Shown here piece after piece: positions 11,832 to 18,655 of a DNA stretch of 45,942 nt. Source of the stretch: a virus; UHGV virus genome UHGV-0205279; one strand, given 5' to 3'. Below the pieces are notes generated by a model. It searched no databases. It was not told the origin of the DNA and was given only the letters and a program-made list of their open reading frames with translations. Within the stretch, counting starts at the first letter, position 1. Each line of letters opens with the position of its first letter. Made by a program: the position numbers and the translations under genes.

Positions 11832-13304
11832 TGTAGTGACCCACAAAAATTGGACACTTTATTAATATTATGCAACTAAGGATTGATTCCGATATTGAAT
11901 CGGAGTCAGTCCTTTTAGTTTACTCTTTGTTCTTTCGTAATTATAAAAGTGAATATAATCTTTAATCGCTTGTTCTAATTCATTCAGATTGGCATAGTTT
12001 GATTCTTTGCCATAAAACATCTCTCTTTTAAGTATGCCAAAGAAGCCTTCCATAAGCCCATCGTCTGGAGAACAGCCTTTCCTAGACATACTTTGTTCAA
12101 TGCCACGTCTTGCAAGTTCATATTGATAAGTCTTATGTTGATATTGCCAGCCACGATCTGAATGAAATACTAATCCATTCAATGAATCATTAACTTTAAA
12201 TGCATCATCAAGCATAGTCAGTACCTGCTGCAAGTTGGGACGACGAGAGATATTATAAGCGACAATATCTCTCCCACAGCCATCGATAATAGGCGATAGA
12301 TAAAGCTTTTGTCCTCTTAAGTTGAATTCAGTAATATCCGTGTACCACTTCATATTTGGTCTAATAGCAAAGAAGTTGCGTTTAATTAAGTTAGGTTTAA
12401 TTCTTCCTTCAATTTCACCCTCAAAGCTGTTGTAGCGTCTTCTACGTTTCATACGATATCCAATCAAATTAAGTTTACGCATTAAACGATAGACTGTTTT
12501 TCGATTGATTATAAAGCCTTCACTATGTAAGTGATCAGTTATTGTTCGATAACCTGGAGCAGTGTATCTATCTTTAAGTTCAAAGAATATTTCTTTAATT
12601 CGTTTAATTAGACTGTGGTGCTTTATCTCATCTTGATCTTCGCGCTTTAAAATATTGTAATAATTGCTTCTGGATAAGCTAGGTAAAGCATTATTCGGAT
12701 CATTTAAAATCGACAAGATAGTTTTAACACCCAACCCAAGTTCTAGCCTTAATTCTCTAACAGCTTGTGCTATTTCTGTTTTGGTTGGTTTTTTCTCTTT
12801 TGAACCAAGGCATCCAATTTTTTTATAAATGCATTCTCGACAGTAAGCTTTAAATTCTGGTGACGCAATTCTTCGTTTTCTTTCTTCAATTTCTCTAGCT
12901 CTTTGTTCACGGGTTCGTCGTCCTTTCCTCTTGATAACGACATTATACCCGTTTTCTTTATAAGAGCGAATCCAGTTAATAAGCATCCCTTGACTTTTCA
13001 AGCCCAATTCTAAAGATACAGAGTAAGCAGCTTCATGATTGACTAAAACCCGATTGATAGCTTCTAGCTTAAATTGGGCTGAATAATAAGTATGGGGCTT
13101 ATCTAATATATCCATTCCATGCCTATGAATGAGTGAAACTAAGTACTTAATACTAACTGAGCCTATTCCATACTTTTTACTTAAATATGTCGATCTTTTA
13201 TTTTCAATAGTCCATTCTTTATAAATATTCAATTTATCTTTTTTAGTTAATTTAGACATAGTAAAACCCCCGAAATCCGTGTCCGAATTTCGGGGGTCAC
13301 TACA
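11832..13304 (-). mobile_element. IS3-family (IS150-like) insertion sequence, 1473 bp, with 3-bp target duplication GAG
   Basis: 26-bp terminal inverted repeats TGTAGTGACCCACAAAAATTGGACAC / TGTAGTGACCCCCGAAATTCGGACAC (22/26 identical) with TG...CA ends; GAG at 11829-11831 and 13305-13307. Confidence 0.95.
11868..13259 (-). CDS. IS3-family transposase, OrfA and OrfB fused in one frame
   Basis: HTH N-terminus; DDE motifs KWYTDITEF, FHSDRGWQY and MEGFFGILKRE. Confidence 0.92.
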   Translation of the reverse strand: MSKLTKKDKLNIYKEWTIENKRSTYLSKKYGIGSVSIKYLVSLIHRHGMDILDKPHTYYSAQFKLEAINRVLVNHEAAYSVSLELGLKSQGMLINWIRSYKENGYNVVIKRKGRRTREQRAREIEERKRRIASPEFKAYCRECIYKKIGCLGSKEKKPTKTEIAQAVRELRLELGLGVKTILSILNDPNNALPSLSRSNYYNILKREDQDEIKHHSLIKRIKEIFFELKDRYTAPGYRTITDHLHSEGFIINRKTVYRLMRKLNLIGYRMKRRRRYNSFEGEIEGRIKPNLIKRNFFAIRPNMKWYTDITEFNLRGQKLYLSPIIDGCGRDIVAYNISRRPNLQQVLTMLDDAFKVNDSLNGLVFHSDRGWQYQHKTYQYELARRGIEQSMSRKGCSPDDGLMEGFFGILKREMFYGKESNYANLNELEQAIKDYIHFYNYERTKSKLKGLTPIQYRNQSLVA

Positions 13305-14153: not shown

Positions 14154-15311
14154 TTATTCAAAATTTTGCATAGCTTCATCGAATTCTAAGTGTTGTTTAT
14201 GGGTAACGTGTAAATAAATTTTTCTTGTAATATCAGAATTGGCATGACCAACTCTATCTGTAATTAAACTTAATGGATATCCTTCTTCTGCAAGTTTGGA
14301 AACGTGAGTGTGTCGGAATATATGCGAGGTAGCTTTTTTCTTCCATTTCTGTTCGTTTACAAACTCTCTTAGAAATCTACTTACAGCTGATGTATTTATC
14401 GGTCCATTAGTATTACTGTATTTATTATGAAATAGGAAATCATTAGCGTTTTGTCCCTTAGAAAATTCTTTATATATCACAACTGCTTCTTTAGGCAAAA
14501 CAATAGTTCGTTGACTAGAGGAAGTTTTGGTAAACTCCTGTCTTTCATTGCGATGACCTTCAGTGCTAATTAAAGTACCTGAAATATTAACATACCATAG
14601 CTTTGTTTCTTTATTTTGAAATATATTCTTTACGAGCAACCCACATCCTTCTCCTAGACGCATACCAGTAAGGTATAGCATTTTGAATAAAGCGTAAAAA
14701 TCATTTCTCTTTTTTTCCAAACAATGGTTAAATAATTTACTCAATTCTTTATCAGTAAGATACCAGTTCTCTATTCGGTCTTGTTTCTTAGCACGTTCAT
14801 TTTTAAAATTAATTTTTACTTTTAAAGCCGGGTTCTTTCTTGCATACCCAAATTGAATTGCAAAATCAAAAAGCTTTGTAAGAACTACATGATATTTATG
14901 TGCAGTAGCATTAGATAATTCATCTTTATAAAGAAGATCATTAATATATGTATTAAGTTCAATAGTAGTAATAGAATCAGCCGATCTTTTCCCGAAAGTC
15001 CTAGAAATTTTACTAAGACAAGCGAAATAAGTATCTAAAGTTTTAGGTGCTAAACCCTGATCAGACATATTAGTTTGTAAATCTTCAATAAGTTTATCCA
15101 TCGTAATTTGTTTAATAGATTGAATATTTAACTTATCTTGGATCATCTTTTTGACTTTCACATCAGCTAAATTTCGAGCCTTAGCAGTGTTTTTAGTAAT
15201 TGTGGTAGAACTCTTATGTACGCCCAGGAAAGAGGGATCAGTATACCTAATTGAGTATTTAAATTTGCCATTTTTTAAAGGTTCAATCTGAGGAGTGTAA
15301 TATTTTACCAT
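14154..15311 (-). CDS. int: Tyrosine integrase
   Basis: TGMRLGE, HIFRHTH, GHAN and IYLH catalytic motifs; 385 aa. Confidence 0.97.
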   Translation of the reverse strand: MVKYYTPQIEPLKNGKFKYSIRYTDPSFLGVHKSSTTITKNTAKARNLADVKVKKMIQDKLNIQSIKQITMDKLIEDLQTNMSDQGLAPKTLDTYFACLSKISRTFGKRSADSITTIELNTYINDLLYKDELSNATAHKYHVVLTKLFDFAIQFGYARKNPALKVKINFKNERAKKQDRIENWYLTDKELSKLFNHCLEKKRNDFYALFKMLYLTGMRLGEGCGLLVKNIFQNKETKLWYVNISGTLISTEGHRNERQEFTKTSSSQRTIVLPKEAVVIYKEFSKGQNANDFLFHNKYSNTNGPINTSAVSRFLREFVNEQKWKKKATSHIFRHTHVSKLAEEGYPLSLITDRVGHANSDITRKIYLHVTHKQHLEFDEAMQNFE

Positions 15312-15330
15312 TTGATTTTTACCTCCATTT

Positions 15331-15467
15331 TGCTAAAATAGGGTAGACGAAAGGGACTGATTTAATAATCAGACTTTCATCTAGCATATATATGTGTTTG
15401 CTTTGAACATTGGTTAGAGTGATGACCGACCCGTTAAGTGTTACCAGCGCTTTGCGGGTCTTTTTTT
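15331..15467 (+). ncRNA. Candidate antisense sRNA over the integrase leader
   Basis: Extended -10 TGCTAAAAT (15331-15339); stem 15344-15383; terminator 15428-15467. Confidence 0.55.
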
Positions 15468-15476
15468 GCATCTAAT

Positions 15477-16160
15477 TTAATCATCGTCACCGTCTGAATC
15501 ATCATTTGATGGTTTAGTAATAGTTTGTGTGCCGATTGTTTTAATAGTTAACGGCTTACCATATGAATCCATAGAATCACTATCGTAAGGCCGAAGTAGA
15601 TACGTATCTACATTTTTATCGCCATCATCTTTGTCTAATTGAAAAGACATCGCAAATGGAACCGTTTGACCCGGATCGACTTTATTTAATTTTGCGTTAA
15701 TCTTATCTTTCCAGGGAGTTAAATCTTCTTCAAATTGAGAACGTTCACCGCCTACTTCATGAGTAGATTTAGCCAACTTTTGTTCTAATTTTAAGTTATC
15801 CATGAAAAAATCTTCCGGAGTAACACCTTTTTTAGCTTTATTAGTGAATGAAGCATCAATAACTATATAGTTCACATCACCGTCTGGAGTAGCATCCTTA
15901 AGGGTAACTTTAGTTAACTTTTCAATCTTAATTGAACCTTTGCTAGTTTTAAAAGTATTACCTATGAATTTGTTAGTAGAATGTGATTTAGTCTTTTCTT
16001 TAGCTTCTTTATCTGCTTTATTAAGCGTCTTTTCTAGTTTATCAGCATTTCTACTAGTTGCCTGTTTATTACCACCATTGCCAGCCTGGTTAGAACAAGC
16101 ACTAGTTCCTAAACCTAACGCAACTAATGTCGTCGCTGCAACAATATATCTCTTTTTCAT
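15477..16160 (-). CDS. Lipoprotein (DUF5067-like), candidate superinfection-exclusion protein
   Basis: Start ATG 16160 behind GGAGG; MKKR-hydrophobic-TSAC lipobox; lies between int and cI. Confidence 0.8.
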   Translation of the reverse strand: MKKRYIVAATTLVALGLGTSACSNQAGNGGNKQATSRNADKLEKTLNKADKEAKEKTKSHSTNKFIGNTFKTSKGSIKIEKLTKVTLKDATPDGDVNYIVIDASFTNKAKKGVTPEDFFMDNLKLEQKLAKSTHEVGGERSQFEEDLTPWKDKINAKLNKVDPGQTVPFAMSFQLDKDDGDKNVDTYLLRPYDSDSMDSYGKPLTIKTIGTQTITKPSNDDSDGDDD

Positions 16161-16271
16161 GATTACCTCCACGATTGCCTTAGGTTTAACGTCACTGGTA
16201 TTGTGGACGACGAACAAATATAGTAGATGCGCGATCGGAACGAGCGCGCAGCTAGGGCGCCCGCGGTTAGA

Positions 16272-16322
16272 TTATTTATTGATTTCATGAATCAAAAGAA
16301 GTAAGATGATTATTTGGTTCAT
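16272..16322 (-). CDS. Candidate 16-aa hydrophobic peptide MNQIIILLLLIHEINK (type I toxin-like)
   Basis: GGAGG RBS at 16331-16335; RBS and ATG lie inside a long hairpin. Confidence 0.4.
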   Translation of the reverse strand: MNQIIILLLLIHEINK

Positions 16323-16438
16323 GTTTGTCACCTCCGAAGACACGGGCACAGCTTGCTGTGCTAAACTCAGGAGAGTGACATAACATGAAGAGAGCGGGCG
16401 TCCTAAGAGCTTTTAACTTCTAGGGATGCCTGTTTTTT
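16279..16438 (+). ncRNA. Candidate sRNA B (about 16314-16438) with its promoter
   Basis: TTGATT-17-TAAGAT (16279-16307); hairpin 16318-16389; terminator 16395-16438. Confidence 0.6.
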
Positions 16439-16454
16439 ATGCTTGATGTGATGT

Positions 16455-16597
16455 AAAAAAAGAGGCATGTGATACATTTCAAAAGAAATAATCACATGCC
16501 TCGCTCATCACTCTGAGCAATACATTAAAGACCATTTTCATGGTCGACATCAATCTGTCGATACCTGTATTATGACATATGACTATTTATTATTCAA
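16455..16597 (-). ncRNA. Candidate sRNA A (about 16563-16455) with a promoter overlapping the PemK-like stop codon
   Basis: TTGAAT-17-CATAAT with extended TG; three hairpins; 12-bp terminator stem plus U7. Confidence 0.65.
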
Positions 16598-17507
16598 TAG
16601 TTTTGATTAAAGCTAATTTGATGTTTTGAAGTACATCTTCAGATACATATGCATTTCCAGAAATAGTAAAATGATTTAACTTTGCTACTTTCAGTTTGCT
16701 TACTGACTTAATATCTGATATGACTCCAAAAGATTGTTTATTATACTTTCGTAATTGTTCAGTAACATATATTAATTGATCAACGATATCTGTACATGTT
16801 TTCAGCTGTTTAATTATTTCTTTTTGAAATAAAATAATTGTTTCAAGAAAAGAAACAAGTTTAAAAATAGTTGGATACTTTTCCCACGAATTTGTTTTTT
16901 TGATTTCTAAAAGTAAATTTTCTAAATCTGGATGTCTTTTTGTAATATCAATACTTCGATTGCTTTTTAAAAGGGAAGAAATATCGATATGTTGATTTTT
17001 AAAAAATTCCATTTCTTCTGCAGAAAAAGAAAAACTATCACCAGAATTGTTTTTTCTAAAAGTTTTAAGTCTTTTATCTAGAATTTTGATTTTTCTTTTT
17101 AATTCTTTAACACGGTTATTACCTAATTCAATTATTCCGTTCATTAGTCCATAACCCAAGTCGATATATCCTCTATGATAATGAGATGAAAGAGGTACAA
17201 CTAGGATCTTACTTTTATATTTCGTGTCATTATTGGATATCACTATTCCGAAATGTCTGCCACCTAGTTCAGTTCCAACAGGGACACCATAATCAATCAT
17301 TACTATAGTTCCTTGTTTAAATTTTCTATAATACTTAGGTGATTTACCATGTAATTCTTTGTCTAACTCATATCCATAGAAATTCATCCAATTAGGTAGA
17401 CGTGAGATCTTCCAATTATTAGGATCGCCTTCATAATAGACGGAATTAAACTTAGCAAGCTTTTGTCTTTTTTCGGTATTAGTATATCTTCGTTTATATT
17501 CAGACAT
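16590..17507 (-). CDS. PemK/MazF-fold endoribonuclease-like protein with a large helical insertion
   Basis: KQGTIVMIDYG...GTELGGRHFGIVISNN...ILVVPLSS and C-terminal SDIKSVSKLKV motifs, separated by about 140 helical residues. Confidence 0.8.
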   Translation of the reverse strand: MSEYKRRYTNTEKRQKLAKFNSVYYEGDPNNWKISRLPNWMNFYGYELDKELHGKSPKYYRKFKQGTIVMIDYGVPVGTELGGRHFGIVISNNDTKYKSKILVVPLSSHYHRGYIDLGYGLMNGIIELGNNRVKELKRKIKILDKRLKTFRKNNSGDSFSFSAEEMEFFKNQHIDISSLLKSNRSIDITKRHPDLENLLLEIKKTNSWEKYPTIFKLVSFLETIILFQKEIIKQLKTCTDIVDQLIYVTEQLRKYNKQSFGVISDIKSVSKLKVAKLNHFTISGNAYVSEDVLQNIKLALIKTIE

Positions 17508-17546
17508 ATTTTTAATATTCCTTATTTTTATTTTTTAGTTTGATTA

Positions 17547-18224
17547 CTACATATCAAACCCAACATGAATAGCTTTACCTAGGATACGACCTGGATTGTC
17601 TTTGTTTAAGATGATCGGGTCGTATTTTGTGTTTATAGGATAAAGAAATACATCTTTCCCAACATGCTTAACCTTCTTTAAAGTGGCTCTGGTATCATCA
17701 TCAACCTGAACGGCTGCAATTTCATCGTCTTCAATAGTAGGCTGCTTATGGATAAGAACAAGGGCACCGTCTGGAATAAGTGGTTCCATCGAATCACCTT
17801 GGCATCTTAGTGCAAAAAGTTCATCTTTTTTCGGTTCTTCTTCAAATAATTCATGAGTGTAGCCCTCAATGTTCTGTTCGGCCAAGATAGGTTCACCGCA
17901 TGCGATTGTTCCTATAATAGGAACTCGAACGTAATGCATCCCTGATGTGTCGATAGAATTGGAGGGAGTAGGTTCTGAATCTAGTTCAAAAGAATATCTT
18001 GGATCTATATCACTTTTTTTAACATTTAATGCTAAAGCGAGTTTTTCCAAGTTTCCAGCATTAGGAGTGGATTTTTCTCGAAGATAACCGGATAACGTTG
18101 TAAGAGGTATACCAGCTTTTCTGGCTAATTCAGATTGTGTCATTCCATGCATATATTCTTTTAAATTAGCAGATATTAACTTTCGAGCGGCTTGTTCGAA
18201 AGCTGATAATTTATTTCTCGGCAT
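17547..18224 (-). CDS. cI: CI-like repressor (XRE HTH plus S24 autopeptidase)
   Basis: HTH TQSELARKAGIPLTTLSGY; IACG cleavage site; GDSM and TLKK catalytic motifs. Confidence 0.95.
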   Translation of the reverse strand: MPRNKLSAFEQAARKLISANLKEYMHGMTQSELARKAGIPLTTLSGYLREKSTPNAGNLEKLALALNVKKSDIDPRYSFELDSEPTPSNSIDTSGMHYVRVPIIGTIACGEPILAEQNIEGYTHELFEEEPKKDELFALRCQGDSMEPLIPDGALVLIHKQPTIEDDEIAAVQVDDDTRATLKKVKHVGKDVFLYPINTKYDPIILNKDNPGRILGKAIHVGFDM

Positions 18225-18291
18225 TATTTAGCCTCCTTTCTCTAACTGATCTTAAAACTAAACTTTTAAGATTAATTGAGTTTATGCCTAT

Positions 18292-18378
18292 ATTATAATA
18301 GAAATTTCGTAGTTGTATTCATTTTTATACAAAAATACTAGTTTATTAGTTGACATTACGAATAAACTAGTATAATAT
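18292..18378. promoter_or_regulatory. Genetic switch: divergent promoters and operators
   Basis: Rightward TTGACA-17-TAATAT (18350-18378); leftward -10 TATAAT (18292-18297); TACGA-N6-TAGTA-like boxes at 18296, 18336 and 18357. Confidence 0.75.
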
Positions 18379-18409
18379 AAAATCGAACTTGAACGAGAGG
18401 AGGAAATAT

Positions 18410-18655
18410 ATGAGTCAAAAAGATGTGAAACTTACGCTCGAAGCGGCTCGAATAAATGCAGGATATACACAGGCTCAAGCTGCGAATGCACTAGGACTAA
18501 AGCCGACAACACTTGCAGGTTGGGAAAAGGATAGCACTAGATTGTCATATATAGAAGCACATAGATTAGCTAAGTTATATGGAATAACTCCTGATTTGCT
18601 TTTTTTTGGCAAAAAATACGATTTTATTAGTAGAATGAAGAAAGAGAGAAAGTAA
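18410..18655 (+). CDS. cro: Cro-like HTH protein
   Basis: GAGGAGG before ATG 18410; LTLEAARINAGYTQAQAA HTH; divergent from cI. Confidence 0.88.
   Translation: MSQKDVKLTLEAARINAGYTQAQAANALGLKPTTLAGWEKDSTRLSYIEAHRLAKLYGITPDLLFFGKKYDFISRMKKERK

Follow-up and report, generated by a model that had tools for sequence, protein, structure and literature searches.

Sma-family MazF/PemK-fold genes of phages are followed by a predicted two-unit RNA, a candidate type III-like antitoxin

The Sma-like gene and its setting

The viral genome UHGV-0205279 (45,942 nt, the window) belongs to a temperate phage with a lysogeny module in the order cro-like gene (+ strand), cI, Sma-like gene, DUF5067 lipoprotein-like gene, and tyrosine integrase gene (int) (Table 1). 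Its host is probably a lactobacillus, an inference based on the nearest named homologues, which come from Lactobacillus johnsonii (65-66%) and Limosilactobacillus. The Sma-like gene starts 39 nt past the cI stop codon, as stated in the original prediction, all coordinates of which hold, and the two genes likely share a transcript. Between the lysin and integrase genes lies a gene for a transposase with an integrase-core (rve) domain (11868-13259, − strand).

Table 1. Predicted features around the Sma-like gene in the window.
Feature	Position	Strand	Basis
cI-like repressor (HTH_3 + peptidase S24)	17547-18224	−	ORF and Pfam domains
Sma-family MazF/PemK-fold predicted RNase, 305 aa	16590-17507	−	ORF, Pfam, profile, model
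Predicted sigma70 promoter of the RNA	16569-16597	−	TTGAAT-17-(TG)CATAAT; conservation
Predicted structured RNA, 108 nt, candidate antitoxin	16455-16562	−	Promoter, fold, covariance
Unit 1: AUC + small hairpin P1 (4 bp, loop GAUUGA)	16546-16562	−	Fold, alignment
P2 hairpin (6 bp), abuts P1	16530-16545	−	Clade-specific, missing from many clades
Unit 2: AUU + small hairpin P3 (5 bp, loop GAGUGA)	16503-16521	−	Fold, alignment
Intrinsic terminator P4 + U tract, abuts P3	16455-16502	−	Terminator search, fold
Second predicted RNA, divergent from int	15346-15467	+	Own promoter 15312-15339, own terminator, z −4.5

The protein encoded by the Sma-like gene consists of an N-terminal extension (residues 1-60) and two core segments (61-118 and 255-305) separated by a helical insert (approximately 119-254). 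While the Pfam PemK match covers only residues 64-112 (E 7e-6), phrog_1412 spans residues 10-301 (E 2e-42). An AlphaFold2 model (pLDDT 76, pTM 0.55) places helices at residues 120-254 between the two halves of a MazF barrel, in line with the split fold originally proposed, and its best PDB match in Foldseek is S. aureus MazF (E 7e-4); among the fold matches listed for this model, a ToxN chain is absent. Neither PADLOC 2.0 nor NCBIfam yielded a match to the protein. The top annotated phage match is ORF005 of PT1028, to which it aligns over the full length in a profile comparison (hhalign 100%, E 3e-53) and with 28% identity over 260 aa in BLASTP. We infer that ORF005 is Sma, since no other MazF-like match was obtained in the PT1028 record and since it agrees with what has been published on Sma. 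According to these accounts, Sma of SaPIpT1028 is an antiphage system of a single gene, whose product resembles MazF and has a long central region (PMC12409344, PMC13660305). By homology, the window protein is thus a member of the Sma family with a published anti-phage homologue.

Profile searches assigned 889 clusters to this family at E≤0.001, and 574 clusters (50% identity) at E≤1e-10. Across 119 relatives, the insert ranges from 51 to 151 aa and is poorly conserved, with a mean column identity of 0.18 versus 0.61 and 0.52 for the core halves. Residues H85, D94, P105, S108, and K271 are invariant. H85, present in 119/119 sequences, aligns (via a canonical MazF-like ORF) with the Arg of the G-H-R-P motif in E. 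coli MazF, the catalytic residue of that enzyme. The neighboring R84 of the GGRH motif, which had been suggested as the residue for a control mutation, is variable and does not suit this role, for which H85 is the apt choice. Phage 77 ORF017 is another relative of the window protein; it is reportedly listed among proteins that inhibit growth when produced on their own, as might be expected of a toxin. In 5 loci (L021, L071, L072, L103, and L138), the Sma-like gene is split or interrupted, and both promoter and RNA are retained.

The genes upstream of Sma-like genes differ among the 46 loci compared, cI being the neighbor in the window. ORFs of 50-120 aa occur ≤60 nt upstream in 8/46 loci, but their sequences are unalike, and a constant protein partner was not found upstream in these 46 loci. 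The protein, originally described as an orphan PemK/MazF-fold protein, is a Sma-family member and not an unknown orphan. With MazEF/PemIK, the family shares the toxin fold, and it differs from them in the lack of a constant small upstream gene, in the insert, and in the His replacing the catalytic Arg. Membership in the type II MazEF systems was rejected, as there is no constant adjacent gene for a small protein antitoxin.

A promoter and a folded RNA behind Sma-like genes

The predicted promoter of the RNA, already recognized in the original prediction, is present in the window, with a −35 element that overlaps the last codons and the stop of the Sma-like gene, a 17-nt spacer, and a TG-extended −10 element, and it is conserved behind homologues; the predicted transcription start is A16562. 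As promoter-like sites in the surrounding 5-kb region occur at chance level (19 found versus 20.6 expected), the weight of this promoter comes from its conservation. Of 115 profile-matched ORFs in the loci examined, 92 could be assessed (3′ end intact, downstream sequence long enough), and clustering at 70% identity left 51 gene ends, including the window. Under a strict rule (promoter ≥9/12, −35 element from 15 nt before to 25 nt after the stop, terminator 55-125 nt past the predicted start), the promoter alone was found at 38/51 Sma-like gene ends compared to 4/125 control ORFs, and promoter plus terminator at 37 of the 51 non-redundant ends compared to none of the 125 controls from the same loci. 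For controls with a long downstream gap, the corresponding counts were 1/61 and 0/61. A relaxed rule detected 48/51 Sma-like gene ends and 10/125 controls. Because these rules had been fixed after data inspection, 8 further loci were tested, of which 6 satisfied the strict rule and the remaining 2 the relaxed one; it should be noted that 1 of these held-out loci repeats an RNA already seen and 2 belong to a known clade. PT1028 ORF005 passes the test for promoter and terminator as well. The predicted start is an A in 32/37 loci, and the predicted RNAs measure approximately 70-110 nt. At the level of sequence, these comparisons confirm that a predicted promoter followed by a folded RNA is a family-wide trait of Sma-like genes, and the RNA is very probably transcribed as a discrete species.

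In the window, nucleotides 16562-16455 fold into 4 hairpins (−45.7 kcal/mol, z −7.9; z −2.9 for the pre-terminator part). The pre-terminator part is more stable than shuffled sequences in all 37 loci (mean z −2.1, with 20 loci below −2). The length of 108 nt agrees with the approximately 110 nt originally predicted. The first two hairpins proposed there overlap by 2 nt; in the stable form, a 4-bp P1 (16559-16546) abuts the 6-bp P2 (16545-16530), and an A/U-rich linker separates P2 from P3. When 10 close RNAs were aligned with MAFFT, 97.9% of cells paired, and compensatory changes were seen at 10/24 pairs (6 in the terminator, 2 each in P2 and P3, and 0 in P1); the second pair of P1 is mismatched in 5 of the 10 sequences. 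A covariance model built from these RNAs was run on 60 sources and gave 25 matches. Besides the 10 RNAs used for training, it recovered 10 others, each of them behind a Sma-like gene; the other matches are 3 antisense ones to terminators, a second copy in L058 behind what is left of another Sma-like gene, and one additional site in the window. Applied to 99 same-genus genomes (40 candidates scored per genome), the model gave 3 matches, 2 behind Sma-like genes and 1 orphan.

A search of Rfam, proposed with the original prediction, was run and returned no match to the RNA or its homologues, nor to window positions 15300-18500. The Rfam pemK motif (RF02913), to which the RNA is similar in name, small size, and occurrence in Firmicutes, was considered and rejected, as its 61-position model matched neither the window RNA nor its homologues; the best RF02913 match lay before an ORF that is presumably excisionase-like.

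Two similar units and their distribution

Across clades, the RNAs share a common layout: A-Y-N(1-3) with a small hairpin, an optional larger hairpin, an A/U linker, a second A-Y-N(1-3) with a small hairpin, and the terminator. Both small hairpins were found in 29/37 loci, the remaining 8 having been dropped from the two-unit test since no perfect hairpin pair was found in them; in L009, the rule chose P2. Unit 1 was closer to its own unit 2 than to those of other loci when compared with all of 20,000 permutations. When each of 20 clusters formed at 45% identity was represented by a single locus, the identity between units was 0.54 within and 0.38 between loci (p<0.0005, all 200 draws), while clustering at 35% left 5 clusters and a borderline result (median p 0.03-0.06, worst 0.27). 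Furthermore, L045, L082, and L090 contain near-exact internal repeats whose sequences are unrelated to each other. The tip CA-GA(U/G)UGA-UG, which the original prediction had noted in both outer hairpins, is present in the window, but the loops vary in homologues. The resemblance of each locus's own units and the near-exact internal repeats thus support, at the sequence level, the idea of two sites for one symmetric protein, although the loop sequence itself is not conserved.

The sequence of the RNA differs between clades and its type tracks the protein clade, tandem genes included. In L003, 2 tandem Sma-like genes are each followed by their own RNA type; the pairs in L003 and L034 encode proteins of 217 aa and approximately 300-320 aa, with a different RNA behind each. 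The unit sequences of 29 loci occur almost solely at Sma loci within the 642 kb searched. In L004 and L006, an apparent 3′ half (unit 2 and terminator) of an L062-type RNA was seen by eye right after the RNA terminator, and this leftover suggests that one Sma cassette replaced another.

Two kinds of sites depart from this association. First, positions 15409-15429 in the second predicted RNA of the window match unit 2 at 18 of 21 nucleotides (0.01 expected by chance); the promoter predicted for this RNA overlaps, on the other strand, the ribosome-binding site of int. An integrase-divergent RNA with a near copy of unit 2 is found in 12 phage contigs, 10 of which have no Sma-like gene in the flank examined; because of these contigs, the unit may bind another factor. 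The copy may represent a decoy, shared ancestry, or the sign of such a factor. In the same position as the second RNA of the window, antisense to and upstream of int, L044 has a sub-threshold match (2802-2891, − strand) to the S. pyogenes sRNA Spy779816 (RF02589). Second, an orphan RNA is located at approximately 10087-10190 of L135 (G1530:C23:23086-23189), where 19 kb of sequence contain nothing Sma-like; an ORF of 1356 aa about 4 kb away is, judging from its appearance, presumably Cas9-like.

A candidate antitoxin and competing explanations

MazF proteins are dimers, the fold of ToxN is akin to that of MazF, and ToxI is made up of pseudoknot repeats that lie in tandem upstream of the toxin gene and are cut by the toxin. 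The locus resembles type III toxin-antitoxin systems, judging by its sequence, in the combination of a toxin-like protein with an adjacent non-coding RNA gene. ToxIN/AbiQ is described as an RNase toxin that is inhibited by a bound non-coding RNA and freed on phage infection. In contrast to ToxI, the window RNA lies downstream, has its own predicted promoter, contains a pair of degenerate hairpin units, and is without a match in Rfam; upstream tandem repeats of the ToxI type are absent from the window gene, with its upstream gap of 39 nt. A closer likeness in RNA architecture is offered by AbiF with RCd22/AbiFr, a prophage system in which an RNA of approximately 100 nt with two stem-loop motifs and a terminator is reported to neutralize a dimeric RNase by binding, but AbiF has a HEPN fold instead of the MazF fold, and RCd22 lies upstream and is co-transcribed with its gene (bioRxiv 2025.04.15.648962). 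With Sma of PT1028, the window module shares the split MazF fold with its long central insert, the location on a mobile element, the lack of a protein antitoxin, and the same succession of promoter, hairpins, and terminator. The window protein exceeds that of PT1028 by 40 aa, and P2 is an additional hairpin of the window RNA. The published descriptions of Sma present it as a single gene, and the passages on the system mention no RNA (PMC12409344, PMC13660305). In our search of the literature, mostly of non-subscription papers, no report of a Sma-associated RNA was found, and an earlier description is possible.

A type III-like pair is the most economical reading of the locus, since a constant protein partner was not found, the RNA is neither antisense to the mRNA nor equipped with a Shine-Dalgarno-led ORF, and it is kept even where the next same-strand gene is missing. 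The downstream, independently promoted RNA of the original prediction has its counterpart in a conserved structured RNA with a predicted promoter of its own, and this RNA is probably a separately transcribed antitoxin that would bind the predicted RNase and keep it silent in lysogens. Translation of the cI transcript would yield the protein, the promoter within the last codons of the gene would supply an excess of the RNA, and the two A-Y-N and small-hairpin units would occupy both equivalent RNA-binding faces of the presumed dimer. Upon superinfection, a stop of host transcription or the contact of a phage product with the variable insert could cause loss or displacement of the RNA, and the freed RNase would block the incoming phage. 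ToxN is described in a review as released by host transcription shut-off, with phages escaping it via RNA mimics. A role of the insert as phage sensor would fit its variability and a remark in PMC13660305. We also lean slightly towards the broader view that Sma represents a widespread, unrecognized family of RNA-antitoxin modules with clade-specific two-unit RNAs, in which the orphan and integrase-linked copies would be decoys with which other phages or hosts silence the module.

If correct, the antitoxin reading would explain how a MazF-like defence enzyme without a protein antitoxin spares its host, would change the classification of a named defence system with many occurrences in phages of Staphylococcus, Streptococcus, and Lactobacillaceae, would add a MazF-fold branch with downstream RNAs to the type III systems, and would provide an explicit two-site model for testing. 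It would also offer a testable reason for the reported difference between native FS-Sma of RN4220, which fails against phage 96, and the cloned, plasmid-borne sma gene, which is activated by this phage and stops it (PMC13660305). Conversely, an antitoxin would be unneeded if the active cloned sma was non-toxic without the downstream RNA. Further points against the antitoxin are the publication of Sma as a one-gene system (PMC13660305), the absence of compensatory changes in P1 together with the location of 6 of the 10 covarying pairs in the terminator, the 8 loci dropped from the two-unit test and its weaker outcome at 5 clusters, the orphan RNA in G1530, and the copies of unit 2 away from Sma-like genes.

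Co-occurrence and the two-unit data fit any cognate RNA-protein pair, and the RNA might instead bind the protein as a cofactor or sensor that is required for defence, for which the reported activation of Sma by a specific phage (PMC13660305) could be cited. We regard this as unlikely, since the RNAs known to bind a protein next to RNase toxin genes (ToxI, RCd22, and the AbiV RNA), as far as they have been described, inhibit their partners, and since the window RNA lacks a guide-like segment that varies and finds only short complements elsewhere in the window, of 11 nt at most. To a similar degree improbable is that the element serves the following gene of the lysogeny module, in many cases int, as a promoter with an attenuator or leader, or that it represents two DNA operators, and that it travels with sma by adjacency only. 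Int does lie 160-310 nt beyond in many Staphylococcus and Streptococcus phages with a Sma-like gene, twin hairpins are twin DNA palindromes too, and the integrase-linked RNA carries a copy of unit 2. However, the gene downstream of Sma-like loci varies or is missing, and behind PT1028 ORF005, the RNA element is kept although 1.9 kb contain no annotated same-strand gene. In addition, the terminated fold is the main state of the ensemble (frequency 0.56), the strict pattern never occurs at control genes of the same loci, and the RNA type follows the protein clade even where genes are in tandem.

Less probable still is a genuine small RNA with a protein-independent job, e.g., binding of a host or phage factor, next to a Sma protein that is held inactive by its own insert. 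The orphan RNA of G1530, the occurrence of unit 2 in phages that lack Sma, and the description of Sma as a single-protein system (PMC12409344, PMC13660305) agree with this possibility, but it sits poorly with an association that stays tight throughout Bacilli although the RNA sequences differ completely, and with the near confinement of the unit sequences to Sma loci. Finally, a type I antisense antitoxin or a micro-peptide mRNA, to which a small hydrophobic peptide gene just downstream of the RNA might point, is highly improbable, because the RNA lies on the same strand as the Sma-like gene and so is not antisense to the toxin mRNA, pairs with the sma and peptide mRNAs no better than shuffled sequences do, and lacks an ORF led by a Shine-Dalgarno site.

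This peptide gene (16272-16322, − strand) encodes 16 aa, lies inside an inverted-repeat-bounded stretch at approximately 16225-16440, and has a strong Shine-Dalgarno site that is buried in a hairpin. Versions of 20-21 aa, in up to 3 copies per locus, occur in other phage loci, the window copy being 4 aa shorter, and the peptide looks like a type I toxin. In L003, L010, L014, and L015, a motif of about 30 nt (GTCCAA ... TTAAAAGCT) is found downstream of the RNA and before differing genes of the lysogeny module, where it is possibly a cassette-exchange site or a leader.
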